Assembly: GCF_910580175.1 (NCBI RefSeq)
Contig: NZ_CAJTXD010000001.1
Coordinates: 10,597-74,596, forward strand
Direction of reading: 5' to 3'
DNA from: an uncultured Alistipes sp.
Lineage (GTDB): Bacteria > Bacteroidota > Bacteroidia > Bacteroidales > Rikenellaceae
Length of the DNA stretch: 64,000 nucleotides
The notes beneath the pieces are model-generated. The model saw nothing but the letters and a program-made list of their open reading frames with translations. It ran no database searches and had not been told where the DNA came from. Positions 1 to 8,015 of this stretch are shown in pieces (the stretch's first letter is position 1; every line of letters begins with the position of its first letter). Position numbers and translations under genes: made by a program.

Positions 1-78
1 CTGGGTTTCGGTGTTGAGACCGAAATCGCGGAGCCGCTCGCCCAAAGCGCTGAAAAGTTCGATGGCATGTTCTTTCAT
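1..78 (-). CDS. N-terminal 26 codons of an unidentified protein that continues past the window edge
   Basis: ATG at 78 on the minus strand, open to position 1. Translation is MKEHAIELFSALGERLRDFGLNTETQ. Divergent from the nitroreductase gene and too short for the ORF track. Confidence 0.35.
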   Translation of the reverse strand, partial: MKEHAIELFSALGERLRDFGLNTETQ

Positions 79-201
79 GACGGCAAAGATAATATTTCAG
101 AACAAAAATATGGACTGCGGGACACGTTTCTCTGGAAAGAAATGTTGCTGGCGAGTGAGTGTTGCGCTATTTTTGCTGTTGTCCGGAAAAACGATCCGAC
201 C

Positions 202-804
202 ATGGAAAGAAGTTGCAGAGATGCTTTGTTGCGCCGTCGCAGCTATTATGCGTTGTCGGCCGATTCGCCGATTACCGATGCGCAGATCGAAGAAATCGTG
301 CGTTTTGCAGTCAAGCATGTGCCCTCGGCGTTCAACTCGCAGTCGACGCGCCTGGTACTGCTGCTGCACGAACACCATGCGGCGTTGTGGAAGATCGTGA
401 AACGCACCCTGCACAGCATGGTTGCCGAAGAGGCGTTCGCCCGCACGGCCCAAAAAGTCGATCGTGGATTTGCGGCGGGCTACGGCACGGTGCTTTTCTA
501 CGAAGATACGGCTGTCGTACGGTCGCTGCAACAGCGTTTTCCGCTCTATGCGGGAAATTTTCATGACTGGTCGGAACATACTTCGGCCATGCACCAGCTG
601 GCGGTCTGGACTCTGTTGGAAGATGCCGGTTTCGGGGCGTCGTTGCAACATTACAACCCGCTTATCGACAAGGAAGTGCGCACGAAATGGCACCTGCCCG
701 AAGAATGGCGGCTGATTGCTCAGATGCCTTTCGGATTGCCTGCGGGCGAACCTCCGGTAAAGAACTTCGAACCGGTCGAAGCCCGCATGCGGGTATTCCG
801 ATAA
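202..804 (+). CDS. nitroreductase family protein
   Basis: Part of ORF 67..804. Internal ATG at 202 gives MERSCRDALLRRRSYYAL, with RRS-x-R near the N-terminus and PSAFNSQSTRLVLL typical of the NADH/FMN nitroreductase fold. The upstream 45 codons look non-native. Confidence 0.85.
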   Translation: MERSCRDALLRRRSYYALSADSPITDAQIEEIVRFAVKHVPSAFNSQSTRLVLLLHEHHAALWKIVKRTLHSMVAEEAFARTAQKVDRGFAAGYGTVLFYEDTAVVRSLQQRFPLYAGNFHDWSEHTSAMHQLAVWTLLEDAGFGASLQHYNPLIDKEVRTKWHLPEEWRLIAQMPFGLPAGEPPVKNFEPVEARMRVFR

Positions 805-1098
805 TATTCATCGTTTGTTCTTTCGAAGCCTCTCGGTATTCGTTATATTCGTTTTTTTTGTTTTTGCCGGCGGATTAGTCTTTGTGCCGTCGGGTGCAAC
901 ATGGGTGGTTGCAAGAGTTTGAAAGCATAAAGAGCCTTGCGTGATGATTTATTTCGATTGCTTATAGCGGATTTTTCGGTGTAGCTGCTGCGTTTAGGGG
1001 ATTTTGACCGAGAGAACCGCGATAGTTTCGTAGATTTGGTTCTGGATGACAATTTCATCCATAAGATTAGGTTCGATACAAATACACGTGAAAGAAAT

Positions 1099-1143
1099 AA
1101 CAAAGAGAAGCCGAAAAGAATCTCTTTTCGGCTTCTCTTTGTT
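1099..1143. terminator. perfect 21-bp hairpin, bidirectional intrinsic terminator downstream of the XRE gene
   Basis: AACAAAGAGAAGCCGAAAAGA (1099-1119), loop ATC, TCTTTTCGGCTTCTCTTTGTT (1123-1143). A/T runs lie on both sides. Confidence 0.7.
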
Positions 1144-1187
1144 TCTCAATGTGGCAATTCTTCAAAAATCAATATTTGCTTTATATT

Positions 1188-1415
1188 CTATTTTTCATAA
1201 TCGATGTCATGAAAAAAGTCCTCTAAAGAAATATTGTAGAAATTACATAAAACGGTCAACAAAACTACCGTAATATTTGTCGTTCCCACTTCATACAAAC
1301 CTACGTTAACTCCGGTTTGATCGGTAACCACTTCTTGAGTATAGCCCCGTTCAATCCGCAGCTGCTTTAACCGACGTGCAATAGAGCGTAATAACGTATC
1401 GTTTGTGTGCTTCAC
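1188..1415 (-). CDS. XRE/Cro-C1 family helix-turn-helix transcriptional regulator (75 aa)
   Basis: IARRLKQLRIERGYTQEVVTDQTGVNVGLYEVG matches the HTH_3 pattern (L-R-x-x-x-G-x-T-Q-E-x-x-A/T). Monocistronic, with its own terminator. Confidence 0.8.
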   Translation of the reverse strand: MKHTNDTLLRSIARRLKQLRIERGYTQEVVTDQTGVNVGLYEVGTTNITVVLLTVLCNFYNISLEDFFHDIDYEK

Positions 1416-1493
1416 TTTGAATTTTTTGCAAAAAACACTCCGATTTCCGCTTTTTTGCTCCTATGATTTCGTAGGAATAAAGAAATATAACAC

Positions 1494-1542
1494 TATATTT
1501 GTTGGCGAATTACCAATGTTCATATTAATTATGCTAACTTTG
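1494..1542 (+). promoter_or_regulatory. two plus-strand Bacteroidota -7 boxes facing away from the XRE gene
   Basis: TAtaTTTG at 1494-1501 and TAacTTTG at 1535-1542. The palindrome TTTTTTGCAAAAAA at 1422-1435 is a possible operator. Confidence 0.4.
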
Positions 1543-1549
1543 CGATTAA

Positions 1550-1966
1550 ATAGTTCGGCATAGGCCGACGGACATAATTAAAGAGCAGCAACTCTTTATA
1601 CCGCAACAGAAAAATTAGGAACTTTTCAAAGGTTAAGGTATAAATGTTGCCAGCCCTTGGTATGTTCCGTCCAGAAATGGACGGGACTTGCAAGGGCGCG
1701 GTGCATTTCTTAACCTTGGGTCTTCCTAATACCTTCTGTTCGGAATGTTATCGCGTCCCTTGCTTTTTATTTCAACTCGGGCGCAATTACCAACGCTCAT
1801 TCCGGCGAGTTATGACGTCCGGCGCCCTCCGAACACCCCAAGACATAAGGTTTGTATCCTCGGCTTCCCGAGCCGCGGATGGACGCGGTATGCGGATTTG
1901 TTCGGAAGCCGGATGGCGTCAACCCCAACGACAGATGCTACGGCCCGATACCCCGAATTTTTTGTG
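1550..1966 (+). ncRNA. candidate structured noncoding RNA or long 5' leader (family unknown)
   Basis: No protein-like ORF on either strand. Nested and long-range helices are listed in the findings. Promoter-like boxes lie upstream, and a U-run (AATTTTTTG, 1957-1965) sits near the 3' end. Boundaries are approximate. Confidence 0.3.
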
Positions 1967-2049
1967 CAATTATTTATTGTATTTCAGCAGCTGCCAGACG
2001 CTCGGAAGCGATATGCCGGAGACTTTCGCTTTCAAAACATTCGATCCCC

Positions 2050-2961
2050 ATGACTGAGGTGCCCTATACCATCGGTTTTCTGGGCGGGTTCAGGGATTAT
2101 CGCCACAACTCGGATTTCATTGATAACGCACTCGATTATTATTGTGGGCGGCATGCGCGTTTGCGTGTCTTAGTGTCGCCGACAACCGAGGGCGAAACAC
2201 GCCTTGCAACACGCATTCTTGCAGCCCGGAGAAGTCGCCCGGAGATAGAGGTCGTTTCGGTCATTGCAACCGCACACCTGCGAAGCTATGAAAGAAGCGG
2301 CACGAGTTCGACGGTTACGCATCGCAATCGGATAATTGCAGCATCCGACCACTATGTTGTACTCAATGAAACATCTTGCGGCGGCTATACGGAACAACTC
2401 TACAATCTGTTCGTCGAGCAATGCGATTTGATTCTCTATAATTGCGTGCAGGATGCGAAAAAGGATCGACTGCTGTCGCATGTTCGACAATTTAGCGTTC
2501 CGGTTCCGATAGCGTTTCTTCCGAAGTTTACAGCGGCCGCAACGGACATCGAAAAAGTACTCGATGCAAGTTTGAACTTCATTCGGTCCAATGACTTTCG
2601 CGTGCCGGCCGAGAAACTGCCGCAGGTGTTTCTGTGCAGCTGGACGTCGCAGCCCGGGCAGGAGCGTTATGCCCATATTTCCAGCCTGGATGACGTGGCT
2701 GCCGTATTTCGACTGGACGACAAAAACATACAACTTAAAGTATTCGCCTATGCGCTGGCTGTTCATGCGAACTTCTGGGCCGACCCGGAATGCTGCGATG
2801 CCGACAGTGTGCATGTGCTCTACCGTCTCTTTTGCCGGCAGCTCGACCGGATTGCCCTTGCCCGCGCATCGGGACAACCGTCCGAACGGTTCGAGTTGTT
2901 CGACTTCGACCGACAACTGAAAGATATTTACCGCCAATCGCGCGTGGCCGTCCGACCATAA
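2050..2961 (+). CDS. hypothetical protein with an N-terminal SLOG-like (YpsA/DUF1273-like) domain and an unassigned C-terminal half
   Basis: In-frame ATG at 2050 within ORF 1852..2961 (MTEVPYTIGFLGG...). VLVSPTTEGETRLATRIL and RNRIIAASDHYVVL resemble the G-x-E...A and RN-x-x-hh-x-x-SD-x-hhh signatures of YpsA-type SLOG proteins. The upstream 66 codons are Cys/Arg-rich and not protein-like. Confidence 0.6.
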   Translation: MTEVPYTIGFLGGFRDYRHNSDFIDNALDYYCGRHARLRVLVSPTTEGETRLATRILAARRSRPEIEVVSVIATAHLRSYERSGTSSTVTHRNRIIAASDHYVVLNETSCGGYTEQLYNLFVEQCDLILYNCVQDAKKDRLLSHVRQFSVPVPIAFLPKFTAAATDIEKVLDASLNFIRSNDFRVPAEKLPQVFLCSWTSQPGQERYAHISSLDDVAAVFRLDDKNIQLKVFAYALAVHANFWADPECCDADSVHVLYRLFCRQLDRIALARASGQPSERFELFDFDRQLKDIYRQSRVAVRP

Positions 2962-3078
2962 AATCTCTTGAAATCTATTTATCCATCTCGTTGTCGAAGC
3001 CGATACCAATGCAGAGAATGAGGTAAACAGAAAAAGGGAGCGGAGTGCGAGGCTCATAACCTTGTGCCCGTTAAAATA

Positions 3079-3191
3079 CCCCGGTTTCCTGCCACCCGAC
3101 TTGAAGACCGGGGATGAGGGAACCTATTCATCGGCGGACTGCGCACTCTTGCAATCAAAACGCAGACCACGATGGAGTTCCCTCATTTTTA
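3079..3191 (+). terminator. compound stem-loops ending in a U-run; probable 3' end of the 2050-2961 transcript
   Basis: CCCCGGT (3079-3085) pairs with ACCGGGG (3107-3113). ATGAGGGAAC (3114-3123) pairs with GTTCCCTCAT (3177-3186) and is followed by TTTT. Confidence 0.45.
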
Positions 3192-3410
3192 TAAGTCCAA
3201 ATTAGTCCAACTCGTCTCCGACGAAATCAGCAAGACCTATGCAGAATAGCGATATGCTTTTTCGATAACCGAAAAAGCGATGATAATAACGTATAATTCG
3301 TTATCTTTACATCGAGGTCTTTATCAAGTGAAGGCTATTGTAAGACAGAGCGGAAGATCGGTTAACAAATCGTTACGCGGTAAAAGGCCACCTCGCCGCA
3401 ACTCGCTGAC

Positions 3411-3453
3411 CTACAAAAGAAAAGAGGATCGAATGATCGATCCTCCTGTTTTT
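3411..3453. terminator. bidirectional intrinsic terminator abutting the tRNA-Gly 3' end
   Basis: GAGGATCGA (3424-3432), loop ATGA, TCGATCCTC (3437-3445). It is followed by CTGTTTTT on the plus strand and TTTTCTTTTGT on the minus strand. Confidence 0.7.
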
Positions 3454-3454
3454 G

Positions 3455-3527
3455 AGCGGAAAACGAGACTCGAACTCGCGACCCCAACCTTGGCAAGGTT
3501 GTGCTCTACCAACTGAGCTATTTCCGC
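3455..3527 (-). tRNA. tRNA-Gly (anticodon GCC)
   Basis: Minus-strand sequence GCGGAAATAGCTCAGTTGGTAGAGCACAACCTTGCCAAGGTTGGGGTCGCGAGTTCGAGTCTCGTTTTCCGCT folds as a cloverleaf. The anticodon loop is TTGCCAA. CCA is not encoded. Confidence 0.95.
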
Positions 3528-3568
3528 AAAACAAACCCTCAAAAGGAAAAACTCCTGCTTTGGGACTG

Positions 3569-3576
3569 CAAATATA
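3569..3576 (-). promoter_or_regulatory. -7 box (TAtaTTTG) for tRNA-Gly(GCC)
   Basis: Plus-strand caaatata at 3569-3576, about 40 nt upstream of the tRNA 5' end on the minus strand. Confidence 0.5.
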
Positions 3577-3842
3577 AACCTAAAAATCAAAACATCAAAA
3601 TTATTTGACGAAAAATAAGCGGATGAAAAATATCTACCCAGCAAAATCCAAGAGCCAAACGCCGGTAAACCAAGACGAGCAATAGAATTGCCGGCCAGAT
3701 AAAAAGGATAAAATACTACCCAAACGAGAGAAAAAGACCGGGTTAAAAACAGCCGGGCGGCATAAAATGGAAAAAGGACAAGAGGCCTAAATATTTTTCG
3801 CATGCTCCTTTTAGCTCCCTATTTGGTGGCGTATGTAATGCC

Positions 3843-3872
3843 AAAATCTCCCGAATGATTTCGGGAGATTTT
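3843..3872. terminator. perfect 13-bp hairpin with flanking A/T runs in the tRNA-rho spacer
   Basis: AAAATCTCCCGAA (3843-3855), loop TGAT, TTCGGGAGATTTT (3860-3872). No convincing gene lies on either side. Confidence 0.5.
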
Positions 3873-4049
3873 ACACACACAAACATTGACAATAAGCAAC
3901 AAGGCATGGCCGAAATTCCATTGTTGCAGTTACAAAGATCGGTAAAAGTCGCGGATCGGACAATCGCTATTTTCAGGTATTTTTTCATTCGGATACTTGT
4001 GGAATTTCCTTCTTGCAGAGTTTTGTTTTTGTAATCCGAAAATATCCAT

Positions 4050-4133
4050 TATCTTTGCACAAGTAATTTTAGTGGGGATAGTCGCGTTCCGGGCATCTCG
4101 ATTCGGGTTTTGCTTCGGCTTGCACTATCTTTG
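4050..4133 (+). promoter_or_regulatory. two -7 boxes upstream of rho
   Basis: TAtcTTTG at 4050-4057 and at 4126-4133. The latter is embedded in CTTGCACTATCTTTG, 53 nt before the rho ATG. Confidence 0.5.
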
Positions 4134-4185
4134 CAGACAATCCATTGCCCGATGTCCGTCGGGTTTCAGAAAATCAGAGTTACAT

Positions 4186-5820
4186 ATGCAAGATTTGAAT
4201 GCGCTCCAGGGCAAAAGCATTGCTGAGTTGCGCGAAATAGCCAAGGCGCTTGGGATCGCCGATGTCAGCGTCAAAAAACGCGAATTGCTTGAAAAAATCG
4301 CAGTTACTGCCGGCGGCCCGAATCCGGATGCCGTTTCTGCGGCGCCGGAGGTGTCCGATGCACCTGCCGTGCCTGCCCTCCCGGAGCGTACCCGCAAAGG
4401 GCGCCGACCGCGTTTGGCCGATACCGATGAGAGTGTGTCCGGCGAGTTGTTCGCACGGGCGGATGCAGAGAGCGATCCCCTGCCGGAGCAGCCGCAGCCG
4501 GCGAAGCCTGAGCCAAGCGCCGGAACCGTTGCAGGTGCCCCCGAGCAGCAGGCTCCCAAGCGGCGCGGCCGCAAGCCCAAGGCTGCCGTGCAGGGACAGC
4601 CTCAGGCGTCCTCCCAGTCTCAGGCACCCCAGGTGCATGCCGTGCCGCAGGAGCCGTCCCACGAGCATGCCGCCGCCCAGGAGGTTATTACCAAGGACGA
4701 TTTTGCCGGCGAGATCGAGGGCGAGGGCGTGTTGGAGGTCATGCCCGACGGTTACGGATTCCTCCGTTCGGCCGACTACAATTACCTCAATTCGCCCGAC
4801 GACATCTACGTGTCGCCGTCGCAGATCAAGTTTTTCGGGTTGAAGCCCGGCGATACGGTCAACGGGGCTATCCGTCCGCCCAAGGAGGGAGAGAAGTATT
4901 TTCCGTTGGTGCGTGTGAACGAGATCAACGGGTTGAAGCCCGATTACGTGCGCGACCGTGTGCAGTTCGAGTATATGACGCCGCTCTTTCCGAGCGAGAA
5001 ATTCTGTCTCACAGGCAACGGACACAACAACATGTCGACCCGTATCGTCGACCTCTTCTCCCCCATCGGCAAGGGACAGCGAGCTTTGATCGTCGCCCAG
5101 CCCAAAACCGGTAAGACCATGCTTTTGCAGTCGATCGCCAACGCCATTGCCGACAACCATCCCGAGGTCTACATGATCGTGTTGTTGATCGACGAGCGGC
5201 CCGAGGAGGTAACCGAAATGGCGCGCAACGTCAAGGCCGAGGTGGTGGCCTCTACGTTCGACGAGCAGGCGTCGCGTCATGTGAAGGTCGCCGAAATGGT
5301 GCTCGACAAGGCCAAGCGCATGGTCGAGTGCGGCCACGACGTGGTTATCTTCCTCGACTCCATTACGCGTCTGGCCCGGGCCTACAATTCCGTGCAGCCT
5401 GCTTCGGGCAAGGTCTTGTCGGGCGGTGTGGATGCCAATGCCTTGCATAAGCCCAAACGGTTCTTCGGCGCCGCGCGCAATACCGAGGAGAAAGGCTCCT
5501 TGACGATCATCGCCACCGCGTTGATCGATACCGGTTCGAAGATGGATGAGGTAATTTTCGAGGAGTTCAAGGGCACGGGCAACATGGAGTTGCAGCTTGA
5601 CCGCAAGTTGGCCAACAAGCGTGTCTACCCTGCTGTCGACGTGATCGCTTCCGGCACGCGCCGCGAGGATCTGCTCTTGCCGCGCGAGGTCATGAATCGC
5701 ACCTGGGTGCTGCGCAAATATCTGTCCGATATGACACCTGTCGAGGCTATGGAGTTTTTGCAGAAGCAGATGGCTTCGACCGACAACAACGAGGAATTCC
5801 TCGCAACGATGAACCACTAA
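4186..5820 (+). CDS. rho: transcription termination factor Rho with a roughly 140-aa low-complexity insert in the N-terminal domain
   Basis: ATG at 4186 ([24 protein letters not shown], Rho_N). OB motif [15 protein letters not shown]...IYVSPSQI. Walker A PKTGKT. The C-terminus ends KRVYPAVDV...[10 protein letters not shown]. Confidence 0.95.
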
Positions 5821-5831
5821 TCCGATTGATT

Positions 5832-6602
5832 ATGAAAAAGTTATTGGTAATTGCATGCTGCTTGTTGGCTGCGCGCGATGTTCGGGCCTGGGGCCAGAAA
5901 GGCCATGATGTCACGGCCTATATCGCCGAATGCAATCTGACGCCCGAGGCCGCTGAAAAGATCGACAAGGTGCTGGGCGGCCATTCGTTGGTCTACTATG
6001 CCAATTGGCTCGACAATGCCAGTCATACGCCTGAATATGCCTACTCTGCCACGTGGCATTACCTCAATATCGACGAGGGGCAGACGCTCGAAACAGCGCA
6101 GCGCAATCCCGACGGCGATGTGTTGCAGGCGGTTACCGATGTGGTCGGAAAGCTCAAGAGCGGCAAGCTGCCGCCCGAGGAGGAGACCTTGGCGCTCAAG
6201 ATGTTGATCCACTTGGTCGGCGACATGCACTGCCCCATGCACACCGGGCGGTTGAGCGATCGTGGCGGCAACCGGCGTCCCGTGACGATGTTTTCCGAGA
6301 CTGCGAACCTACACTCCGTTTGGGATTCGGCGCTTCCCGAGGCGGCCCATCGCTGGAGTTACACCGAGTGGCAGGAGCAGATCGACCGCTTGTGCGACGA
6401 CGAGGCGATGCTCGTGCAGGCCGGCGAACCGCAGGATTGGCTTGTCGAGACGCACGAAATTTGCAAGGAGGTTTACGATTTCACGCCCGAGGGAGCCAAG
6501 ATTTCGTACGACTACGTGGCCAAGTATGCGCCCGTCGTCGAGCAACAGTTCCTGCGCGGCGGCTTGCGTCTGGCCCGCTTGTTGAACGAAATCTATCGTT
6601 AA
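5832..6602 (+). CDS. S1/P1 family nuclease, secreted
   Basis: Signal peptide MKKLLVIACCLLA, then mature WGQKGHDVTAYIAE and the HLVGDMHCPMH zinc-ligand motif. Confidence 0.9.
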   Translation: MKKLLVIACCLLAARDVRAWGQKGHDVTAYIAECNLTPEAAEKIDKVLGGHSLVYYANWLDNASHTPEYAYSATWHYLNIDEGQTLETAQRNPDGDVLQAVTDVVGKLKSGKLPPEEETLALKMLIHLVGDMHCPMHTGRLSDRGGNRRPVTMFSETANLHSVWDSALPEAAHRWSYTEWQEQIDRLCDDEAMLVQAGEPQDWLVETHEICKEVYDFTPEGAKISYDYVAKYAPVVEQQFLRGGLRLARLLNEIYR

Positions 6603-6750
6603 GTTCGGCATCCTCGCCGACCGTTCGATTCTTGCCCTGCGAAAAGCAGGGCTTTTTTGTGTCTTGTTCGGAATGTCAAGGTATTTGCCGGTAGTTTCTA
6701 TTCCGGTTTTGTTCGGGCTATGGTCTAATTTTGTATATTTAACTTCATTC

Positions 6751-6814
6751 AAGATACTCTCGCTCGGCAAAATGCAAGCGAGCTTGCTTTTACCCTCGTT
6801 TATTCGTATATTTG
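6751..6814 (+). repeat. 64-nt palindromic intergenic repeat, copy A (variant 1), ending in a -7 box
   Basis: AAGATACTCTCGCTCGGCAAAATGCAAGCGAGCTTGCTTTTACCCTCGTTTATTCGTATATTTG. Near-identical to the copies at 48271 and 57250. TAtaTTTG at 6807-6814 lies 15 nt before the DUF488 ATG. Confidence 0.8.
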
Positions 6815-6828
6815 AGTCTGATTTCGGT

Positions 6829-7380
6829 ATGGTTTCGACGATCTATTCGATAGGCCACGGCAACAAGCCGATCGGCGAGTTTCTGGAAGAGTTGGCGGGC
6901 TTCGGCATCGCCTACCTTGTGGATGTGCGGTCGCGTCCCTACTCGAAGTGGAATCCCGATTTCAACCAGGAGCCTTTGCGCCGGGTGTTGAAGGAGCATG
7001 GCATCGTTTACGGATTCATGGGCGATGCGCTGGGCGGGGTGCCTGCCGACCGTTCGTTTTACGATGCCGAGGGGCGGATCGAGTACGAGACCCTGAAGAA
7101 GTCCTCCGTTTTCATGGAGGGGCTGGAGCGTATATATAAGGCCGCTTCGCAGCAGTGCAAAACCGTCTTGATGTGCAGCGAGACCGACCCGGCGCAATGT
7201 CATCGCAGCAAGTTGATCGGCGCCGCGTTGCTTGACCGCTATCGTGTTTCGGTCAACCACATCGTCGCCCGCGACAGGTGTAAAATCCAGGAGGAGGTCA
7301 TGGCCGAGGTTACCCGCGGGGCGTCGGTGATCGATCTGTTCGGCAATCCAGTGGCGCTGACTTCCAAAAAGATATATTGA
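6829..7380 (+). CDS. DUF488 domain-containing protein
   Basis: ATG at 6829. IYSIGHGNKPIGEFLEELAGFGIAYLVDVRSRPYS is the family signature (iGHs...F...L...gI..lvDVRs.P.S). CHRS is present near the C-terminus. Confidence 0.9.
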   Translation: MVSTIYSIGHGNKPIGEFLEELAGFGIAYLVDVRSRPYSKWNPDFNQEPLRRVLKEHGIVYGFMGDALGGVPADRSFYDAEGRIEYETLKKSSVFMEGLERIYKAASQQCKTVLMCSETDPAQCHRSKLIGAALLDRYRVSVNHIVARDRCKIQEEVMAEVTRGASVIDLFGNPVALTSKKIY

Positions 7381-7391
7381 GCGATCGCACC

Positions 7392-8015
7392 ATGACCCAA
7401 GTCCTCGTCATCTCCAAAACGCACATGCGCTCCGAATACTGCATCGGCGGTGTCTTTACCGACGGGCGTTTCGTCCGGTTGTTGAAGTCCGACGGGCGTA
7501 ACCAGGATGATGAAGCCTTTTATAGAATAGGTACCTGGTACGATATTGAATACCGCGAGACGGCCCATGTCGAGCCGCCTCATGTCGAAGATATTTTAGT
7601 CTTGTCCGCCGTGCCGATCGGTACGATTCCTTGTGCGGATCTCCCGCTCTATCTGGGTAGTAAGTTCGCTCCCGTGGTCTGGCAGGGCGATGCTTCGGTC
7701 TTGTTCGACGGATTGCTCAAGCGCAGCGATTCCGGCAGTGCTTATATCGACTCCGATGCGATTCCCTCGCGGAGCGTCGGGTTTTGGCGGCCGACGGTCA
7801 ACCTTTGGATGCAGCGATCCGACATCACGGGACGAGCCAAATATGTTTATGTCGATGGCGACAAGAAATATTGTATTTCGTATGTCGGGTTGCTGCCTCC
7901 CGTACTTCAGATTCCTGCCGGTACTTTGGTGCGGGTTTCGCTGGCGCGTTGGTGGCGCAAGGACGATTCCGTCGAAAAACGCTGCTATCTCCAGATTTCC
8001 GGCTGGTATTTCTGA
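7392..8015 (+). CDS. hypothetical protein, possibly a dual OB-fold (DuOB-like) nucleic-acid-binding protein; coupled to DUF488
   Basis: ATG at 7392, 11 nt after the DUF488 stop; an alternative TTG at 7377 overlaps that stop. Beta-rich sequence with KTHMRSEYCIGG at the N-terminus and VRVSLARWW...CYLQISGWY at the C-terminus. The family call is from memory only. Confidence 0.65.
   Translation: MTQVLVISKTHMRSEYCIGGVFTDGRFVRLLKSDGRNQDDEAFYRIGTWYDIEYRETAHVEPPHVEDILVLSAVPIGTIPCADLPLYLGSKFAPVVWQGDASVLFDGLLKRSDSGSAYIDSDAIPSRSVGFWRPTVNLWMQRSDITGRAKYVYVDGDKKYCISYVGLLPPVLQIPAGTLVRVSLARWWRKDDSVEKRCYLQISGWYF

Follow-up and report, generated by a model that had tools for sequence, protein, structure and literature searches.

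Structured RNAs that follow an early, outward-facing promoter and lie beside a small repressor gene are found in phages and satellites, as exemplified by the immunity RNAs c4 of P1 and P7 and CI of P4, and by the antitermination RNAs put of HK022 and EAR of Bacillus. The helices of these RNAs vary between element types, and their complementarity is kept. A similar RNA is found in a 64,000-nucleotide stretch of DNA (the window), the organism of which is an Alistipes according to the names of homologues. Between a nitroreductase gene and a tRNA-Gly(GCC) gene, the + strand at about 1550–1892 lacks open reading frames (ORFs) and constitutes a putative structured RNA of about 340 nt, belonging to a family that is widespread and has no entry in an RNA database. 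The RNA lies between the divergent gene of a 75-aa XRE-type regulator and the gene of a 303-aa protein with a predicted SLOG-type fold. The interval 805–3235, in which all three reside, represents one end of an Alistipes integrative mobilizable element (IME) that has otherwise decayed, and the part that survives is an outward transcription unit comprising two promoter boxes, the RNA, the SLOG cargo gene, and the divergent gene of a putative XRE repressor. We tentatively regard the RNA as a promoter-plus-leader module for the outward-facing cargo unit of the element, a reading whose chances we place a little short of even.

The RNA shares with the c4-type RNAs its place after an outward promoter and its variable but complementary helices. 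However, the C4 family in Rfam does not match it, there is no sequence similarity, and the RNA is much larger (about 240–340 nt). Single-strand origins and promoters of the Frpo/ssi type are likewise long, imperfect, strand-specific hairpins that reside on mobilised elements beside accessory or anti-defence-type genes. In Frpo it is the template strand that folds, whereas in the RNA family folding involves the sense strand with respect to the downstream genes; moreover, Frpo/ssi hairpins contain host promoter elements, whereas no such motif was found in the long hairpin of the window (the rod), and the boxes are situated ahead of it on the strand that folds. ROOL, GOLLD, and the HEARO/omega RNAs are also multi-helix covarying RNAs with invariant unpaired nucleotides and an association with mobile elements, but no Rfam match connects them to the RNA described here, which is smaller than ROOL and GOLLD and has no IscB/TnpB-type nuclease nearby. 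The elements that carry its relatives resemble the NBU-type elements of Bacteroidales, as they encode an HTH_17 excisionase-like protein, NikA/MobC, and a MobA/VirD2 relaxase, with a tyrosine integrase at some of the loci, and are integrated into the chromosome, sometimes beside tRNA genes; the window, in contrast, keeps no mobility genes. To our knowledge, a backbone segment consisting of nucleotidyltransferase (NTase)-HEPN genes, an RNA, and a SLOG gene has not been described for NBU elements. The closest known counterpart of the SLOG-fold protein is YpsA/DUF1273 (2nx2), to which the modelled Rossmann-like fold of the N-terminal ~150 residues is similar, with the difference that the protein here has an additional helical domain of about 150 aa and belongs to a family confined to Alistipes-like mobile elements.

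A structured RNA family with covarying helices

Loci and contigs bearing parts of the module were fetched and numbered (L001, L002, and so on). A protein-based scan of genome contigs gave 7 loci, and a DNA-pattern scan of metagenomes was far richer, as the exact pattern of two invariant blocks of the RNA matched at least 120 metagenome contigs. An nhmmer profile of alignment A5, by which the RNA was located in the loci, gave 146 matches in 126 fetched gut-metagenome or Alistipes loci, with only one match (1555–1791) in the window. Searches against Rfam 15 returned only tRNA and chance hairpin matches on the XRE terminator for positions 1–8000 of the window (E ≤ 1), and nothing for four further loci with seven RNA copies (E ≤ 0.1). 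A distant blastn search of 1540–2050 against a plasmid collection gave no match, and literature searches found nothing corresponding to the RNA. No signatures of RNase P or group II introns were seen by eye, and ARAGORN detected no tmRNA across the window, only two tRNA genes.

The initial annotation described the ORF-free stretch as structured and proposed a long leader or non-coding RNA. Both ideas have held: the stretch has a folding z-score of −3.9, and the non-coding sequence upstream of the 303-aa gene is kept in relatives, where the alignment reveals compensatory changes. The RNA consists of two domains (Table 1). The 5′ domain comprises two small hairpins (P1 and P2), the rod, and the hairpin P10, on all of which single-sequence folds concur, and the 3′ domain contains the nested helices P11 and P12. 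Base pairs of the 5′ domain were counted in 53 copies selected at <96% identity, with controls in which the partners were slid in register. In these copies, 88.7% of cells are paired (41–48% in the slid controls), 29 pairs show double changes in a total of 340 cells (12–19 pairs and 64–98 cells in the controls), and the covariation score is 0.264 (about 0.085 when slid). Several positions in P4, P5, and P7 are occupied by four or five pair types. The derivation of the structure from the same sequences inflates the paired percentage, but not the multiplicity of pair types. The 3′ domain also covaries, as 80.9% of P11/P12 cells are paired, compared with 32–44% in the slid controls, and 8 pairs show double changes.

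The strand of the RNA follows from the non-canonical pairs: in the 5′ domain, G·U occurs in 490 cells and A·C or C·A in 130, indicating that the folded strand is the + strand; the 3′ domain is uninformative in this respect. The helices vary, with up to five pair types per position, and the unpaired nucleotides are invariant. When copies that precede different genes are compared, their similarity breaks off sharply at GGTATG, which closes P11.

Some copies are mosaics. One chimera with mismatched rod arms is identical in two independent assemblies (L022:2152–2393 and L067:2055–2296), and at least some mosaics are therefore real recombinants; the RNA element is a hotspot for the shuffling of its two flanks. 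Arms from different variants, in which P4 and P5 cannot pair, are also present in L017, L048, L056, L058, L060, L095, L106, and L111. Tandem arrays occur as well, in which the order is RNA–ORF–RNA, or in which two RNAs surround a short minus-strand ORF6N gene with a period of about 809 nt. Within the window, a direct repeat of 16 nt (AATTACCAATGTTCAT at 1508–1523 and AATTACCAACGCTCAT at 1785–1800) flanks the segment that contains the promoter and the 5′ domain of the RNA, and may be the vestige of a former tandem RNA copy. Two types of alternative 3′ end are seen in L141 (about 4535–4640, minus strand), L016, L037, and L113, one with the form GGGCGG...CCGCCC followed by T6, and the other with the form GGACGTTCCTGCCGC...GCGGCAGGACGTCC followed by GT5.

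Two further features of this region were considered and rejected. An inner ATACC/GGTAT pairing, proposed by RNAalifold from the raw MAFFT alignment, is invariant and crosses the covarying rod. An upstream ORF of 81 codons (1812–2057) begins at a conserved ATG in the RNA 3′ domain, and its end, ATGACTGA, overlaps the SLOG start codon; in L001, L003, L004, and L022, a 39-codon version has the same first 8 residues and overlaps the start as well. This ORF is probably non-coding, as CCGAACAC is read in differing frames among the copies and the lengths range from 3 to 385 codons.

Promoter boxes, cargo genes, and mobile elements

The RNA is preceded by a divergent control region, in which the two + strand TAnnTTTG boxes reported by the initial annotation, which are of the Bacteroidota promoter type, are present as TATATTTG (1494–1501) and TAACTTTG (1535–1542). 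The motif is frequent in the window (47 occurrences versus 17.7 expected), and no other copy resides on the + strand between 1543 and 3568. In 65 of 88 RNA copies, a + strand TAnnTTTG lies ≤120 nt upstream; the proportion expected by chance is about 3%, an estimate from base frequencies alone, without shuffling. In seven loci of the XRE type, the control region has a mean column identity of 82%, and both boxes are invariant, as is an inverted repeat, TCCTA-N8-TAGGA (1459–1476). The T6GCA6 palindrome (1422–1435), which precedes the start codon of XRE by 7 nt and had been suggested as a possible operator, is indeed present, but is only partly conserved, and the inverted repeat is better kept.

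The XRE gene, as called initially, encodes a helix-turn-helix (HTH) regulator that matches HTH_3 above the Pfam cutoff (E 1.6e-5; 25.3 bits, cutoff 23) and transcriptional-regulator families of PHROG (E 5.7e-6), and for which PADLOC gives a weak RmrA match (E 4e-4). Homologues in Alistipes number 64. Nine loci were fetched solely through XRE homology, and all nine carry the RNA, in divergent orientation and about 137–140 nt from XRE, as in the window, which links the XRE gene to the RNA. The next gene past XRE is ORF6N in six of these nine loci, and an integrase with a primase follows in one (L142). The terminator of XRE, thought to be a perfect 21-bp stem, was located, and its stem measured 20 bp.

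Downstream of the RNA, at least about ten different sequence types have been found, and together with the tandem RNA–ORF arrays this diversity suggests that the RNA module is autonomous. All of the cargo families examined (SLOG-C, C-domain-only, ~190-aa, 224-aa, and 161-aa) have the same orientation as the RNA. In L001, L003, L004, and L022, about 20–30 nt separate the last helix of the RNA from the start codon, as estimated from the offsets. In the window, the spacer between the RNA and the SLOG start codon (1893–2049) contains no promoter box, and no + strand terminator was detected in a scan of 1600–2050. On the other side, the RNA is divergent from XRE, ORF6N, or NTase-HEPN genes, with NTase-HEPN or ORF6N in place of XRE in most loci. 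Recurrent neighbours immediately upstream on the opposite strand are NTase with HEPN, ORF6N, and Bro-N, and MobA/VirD2 relaxase, ParB, and tyrosine integrase genes are found further off. No reverse transcriptase, as would be expected for a retron, is present among the window ORFs, the part of the recurrent neighbour families that was scanned with Pfam, or the precomputed Pfam listings of the fetched contigs.

A lookup of SLOG homologues revealed one backbone across three species groups, in the order HTH_17, NikA/MobC (assigned in L135 and L138), relaxase, a 218–222-aa protein, NTase-HEPN on the minus strand, RNA, and SLOG; the position of the RNA in these loci was confirmed by nhmmer. The backbone is followed by a small HTH_3 gene and then by variable defence cargo, namely type I or IIG restriction–modification (RM), HipBA, or LlaJI with methylases. 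In four loci, the small HTH_3 gene directly past the RNA and SLOG gene is followed by a differing defence system (L132:6518–10300, L135:6178–7662, L138:5961–10232, and L140:3987–7649), these systems being type I RM, HipBA, an LlaJI-like system with two methylases, and type IIG; the region past the RNA and SLOG gene looks like a cargo hotspot. In a second context, a run of genes from ParB to Bro-N/ORF6N ends at the RNA and is followed directly by a chromosomal locus of extracytoplasmic function (ECF) sigma, FecR, and SusC genes. An RNA copy is also present on a 35.6-kb contig classed as viral by IMG/VR (L008, IMGVR_UViG_3300029541_000017), together with Bro-N, three ORF6N genes, and an ECF-sigma locus, and the larger carrier of the RNA may be prophage-like rather than an integrative and conjugative element (ICE).

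The remnant in the window and its SLOG-fold protein

The interval was initially singled out as a low-GC islet with two credible ORFs and no mobility genes, and possibly the remnant of a mobile element. The G+C content is 0.33–0.37 at about 900–1650, compared with 0.52–0.58 in the nitroreductase gene (67–804) and 0.49–0.55 at 1650–3000, and the two ORFs, XRE and the 303-aa gene, are the only credible ones within 805–3454. No relaxase or integrase is encoded among the window ORFs. The origin of the interval is revealed by L002, in which blastn aligns window 986–1035 with 1717–1766 and window 1026–1065 with 2216–2258; these two segments are the two ends of an intact 188-aa ORF6N gene (Pfam E 6e-35). 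Past the RNA, window 2048–3235 is 83–90% identical to L002, and the tail of the module shows 90% identity to L002:4916–5189 and 68% to L135–137; an ECF-sigma/FecR locus lies immediately beyond the tail homologue in L002. The initial annotation placed the change point at the 3′ end of tRNA-Gly, which does not agree with the alignments, as homology to the element-bearing relatives stops at about 3235. The terminator-like helices noted within the tail are present, in a stretch that is kept in relatives, and with the following ATTTTTAT they are likely a terminator. The two helices are stacked ahead of ATTTTTAT, and the tail may be more than a terminator.

The ORF6N ends, the identity to L002 up to 3235, and the absence of mobility genes together identify the interval as a decayed terminal piece of an element. 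The window copy has none of the relaxase, integrase, and defined ends by which an IME is recognised, and no direct repeat of the tRNA-Gly 3′ end was found in the window, so that an insertion of the islet into this tRNA end was rejected; as the relatives possess a relaxase, and some an integrase, the window copy is a remnant and not an element. The arrangement is shared by 20 of 24 contigs with an identical Rho protein and is thus fixed within the species, as core sequence would be, whereas in other species the same module resides on mobile elements at other sites. Two other contigs, L130 and L131, break about 670 nt upstream of the Rho gene, adjoining tRNA-Gly at the edge of the islet, and either a repeated sequence at this place or differences between strains could account for the breaks. 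The rho gene itself (4186–5820) is preceded by two copies of CAYTATCTTTGCA (4047–4059 and 4123–4135), each with a TATCTTTG box, and its 544-aa product has a long Ala/Pro/Gln-rich stretch between the N-terminal and RNA-binding parts.

The cargo gene that remains in the window encodes the 303-aa protein, for which an AlphaFold2 model was built from an alignment of 30 sequences, including paralogues of ~30% identity. Residues 1–150 are predicted to adopt a Rossmann-like α/β fold of moderate confidence (pLDDT 64–89 by block), and the remainder is predicted to be helical at low confidence. The best Foldseek match in the PDB is B. subtilis YpsA (2nx2, DUF1273; E 5.7e-4, probability 1.00, TM 0.61 on the target), followed by the N-terminal regions of TRPM and by PpnN, which we take to be SLOG-fold proteins; among viral models, a phage DprA-like protein is one of the best matches. 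The N-terminal domain is thus predicted to belong to the SLOG superfamily at the level of fold, and a conserved G-E follows strand 2 in sequence alignments A3 and A4. The likeness to YpsA/DUF1273 proposed initially stands at this level, but not as a family assignment, since no Pfam family matches at E ≤ 1 and a sequence-profile search of the PDB fails to retrieve YpsA. The same profile search gave the NGN domain of archaeal Spt5/NusG with three chains (E 0.065–0.077; residues 46–114, window 2185–2391); these matches fall short of significance, conflict with the result of the fold search, and were regarded as noise. The protein has no PADLOC or PHROG match either, and searches of Pfam, PADLOC, and PHROG were likewise negative for four cargo proteins; in PADLOC-DB 2.0, no model matched the SLOG protein, NTase-HEPN, the protein with the C-domain alone, or two further proteins of the cargo.

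The family is small, as only 40 representatives were found among 1.84 billion; a first search gave 60 Alistipes clusters of 64–100% identity, and its matches were all of the Alistipes type. The C-terminal domain of about 150 residues also occurs alone, in proteins of ~180–200 aa, and divergent paralogues exist; an AlphaFold model of this domain by itself (pLDDT 54) was too poor for a fold search. L005–L007 carry the SLOG gene but lack the RNA. A divergent SLOG copy (70–73% identity; L005:608–1811 and L007:3954–4338) lies between tRNA-Thr and tRNA-Ser with no RNA, and two copies are present in one metagenome-assembled genome.

Table 1. Positions of the features of the remnant and of the flanking tRNA gene in the window
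Feature	Position	Strand	Evidence or composition
ORF6N-domain gene remnant	986–1065	-	both gene ends kept, middle deleted
Intrinsic terminator of XRE	1099–1143	-	20-bp stem (8 G-C pairs), 3–5 nt loop, T-rich tail
XRE/Cro-type HTH regulator, 75 aa, GTG start	1188–1415	-	Pfam HTH_3, PHROG
Divergent control region	1416–1554		palindrome, inverted repeat, two + strand TAnnTTTG boxes
RNA 5′ domain, conserved core	1555–1791	+	nhmmer match, E 1e-51
P1	1556–1559 : 1564–1567	+	
P2	1580–1585 : 1592–1597	+	
Rod, ~140 nt, irregular	1603–1741	+	holds P4, P5, (P6), P7, P7b, P8, P9
P4	1605–1611 : 1734–1740	+	
P5	1615–1621 : 1723–1729	+	
P7	1629–1637 : 1709–1717	+	
P7b	1642–1651 : 1700–1708	+	
P8	1653–1659 : 1691–1697	+	
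P9	1664–1672 : 1679–1687	+	
P10	1753–1759 : 1779–1784	+	loop is the U-rich run
RNA 3′ domain, majority variant	1789–1892	+	z3 (1821–1827), conserved CCGAACAC, P11, P12, terminal GGTATG (1887–1892)
P11	1844–1847 : 1889–1892	+	nested with P12
P12	1857–1865 : 1871–1879	+	
Spacer between RNA and start codon	1893–2049	+	common to L002 only (alignment A1)
303-aa protein: YpsA-like SLOG-fold N-domain (~1–150) and all-α C-domain (~150–303)	2050–2961	+	AlphaFold2, Foldseek
Module 3′ tail, conserved	2962–3235	+	helices 3079–3113 and 3116–3184, then ATTTTTAT
tRNA-Gly(GCC)	3454–3527	-	ARAGORN

A proposed leader RNA and its alternatives

As a promoter-plus-leader module, the RNA would make up the 5′ end of the cargo mRNA, as its leader, and would act in cis. 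The core, with its two small hairpins, the conserved internal loops of its rod, and the hairpin with the U-rich loop, would set the amount of transcript that reaches the cargo, or the survival of this transcript, either by binding a conserved partner or through read-through of downstream terminators by the polymerase, and XRE would gate the promoter. This model is favoured by the boxes upstream of most copies, the co-oriented cargo, the closely spaced start codons, and the absence of a second box or a terminator before the SLOG gene. Several observations weigh against it. A canonical minus-strand promoter for XRE was not found, and the arms of the rod are mismatched in 9 of the 53 copies, with the crossover in the conserved centre. 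A classical terminator or attenuator, apparent in the window copy as GCAAGGGCGCG and CGCGTCCCTTGC with the U-run, was considered and rejected, because P8 (n:r) and P10 (y:z2) covary and the would-be terminator r:y does not; y pairs instead with the downstream GGGCGC, and the U-run is the loop of P10. As the covarying partner of y lies downstream of the U-run, a simple attenuator switch is not supported. Many RNA copies, moreover, have no downstream gene, and in the ICE/prophage-like type a chromosomal ECF-sigma locus follows, and the 3′ variants of the L141 and L016 types end in a strong hairpin and a U-run, about 335–400 nt from the start. The last two points would be expected of an RNA that has its own gene in the mobile element and acts in trans, with the cargo simply placed downstream, an explanation that is somewhat unlikely. 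The RNA could then bind a protein of the host or of the element, or titrate it, or the variable, complementary helices P4, P5, and P7 could serve as a specificity code, as in the c4 RNA of P1/P7, the CI RNA of P4, and plasmid antisense incompatibility. The invariance of the unpaired nucleotides beside freely changing helices, and a size and complexity like those of orphan large non-coding RNAs, are in keeping with a trans-acting RNA, which would, however, explain neither the strict co-orientation of the cargo nor the start codons that closely abut the RNA in several types, and the window has neither a terminator nor a second promoter before the SLOG gene; no targets complementary to the variable helices were found, no search for them having been made.

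It is also conceivable, though rather improbable, that the structure acts as single-stranded DNA, being a single-strand origin or an Frpo/ssi-like promoter that drives priming or early expression of the adjoining minus-strand genes (XRE, ORF6N, Bro-N, NTase-HEPN, and ParB) during conjugative entry. The long imperfect hairpin resides in relaxase-bearing elements and invariably adjoins consecutive genes on the minus strand, which a + strand template could express, and G·T is the most tolerated mismatch in DNA hairpins too, which was counted in favour of a DNA structure. A further point in its favour is that leading-region genes are repeatedly preceded by Frpo elements (PMC11541004). However, a scan of the window found no TAnnTTTG on either strand of the rod (1603–1741), and none was seen by eye in other representative copies; promoter boxes of the normal, double-strand kind are found ahead of the element on the strand that folds, and the covarying helices extend past the rod, up to the start codon. 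The folded strand is, in addition, the sense strand of the relaxase gene, which would be the non-transferred strand if these elements follow the usual transfer polarity. The view that XRE, the non-coding RNA, and the SLOG protein work together as a single system dedicated to defence or conflict, or resembling a toxin–antitoxin pair, with the RNA as an effector component, was the proposal of the initial annotation and has become very unlikely. The three parts are adjacent, their arrangement is conserved in the species, and SLOG domains are described in the literature from nucleotide-centred conflict systems, but the parts assort independently, as the SLOG genes without the RNA illustrate, and PADLOC gives no defence family for the SLOG protein and only the weak RmrA match for XRE. 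In relatives, the RNA and SLOG pair belongs to the backbone of the element, and genes that can be recognised as defence genes are located beyond it, further downstream. Equally little can be said for a role mainly as a recombination substrate, that is, a cassette-capture or att-like site of cargo exchange with an incidental or attC-like hairpin, which we consider scarcely probable: the sharp stop of similarity between cargo types at GGTATG, the mosaics and tandem arrays, and the 16-nt direct repeat would suit such a site, but no dedicated recombinase travels along, the copies carry promoters, and the element end in L141–143 lies about 450 nt beyond the RNA, and homologous recombination between repeated copies accounts for the mosaics.

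A broader interpretation, which we regard as unlikely, is that the RNA represents a new large functional class in Bacteroidota mobile elements that marks and controls the cargo-loading end. The invariant loops would bind a conserved partner, which could be a nuclease, the polymerase, or a ligand such as a small molecule or second messenger, and the fast-changing but complementary helices would constitute an element-specific code for immunity or incompatibility among elements that reside in the same cell.

Integrative elements are the vehicles on which gut Bacteroidota trade genes for defence and resistance, and the expression of such cargo is little understood. With its strong covariation, its presence in well over a hundred contigs, and no counterpart in Rfam, the RNA of about 340 nt makes a testable candidate for a new regulatory or catalytic RNA class, and provides a sequence handle by which cargo-bearing ends of elements can be located in metagenomes. 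The protein with the predicted SLOG and helical domains represents a small, uncharacterised family that could tie nucleotide sensing to the biology of these elements. If the RNA does constitute a new class, it would be an RNA switch that times the expression of defence and anti-defence cargo in gut Alistipes.

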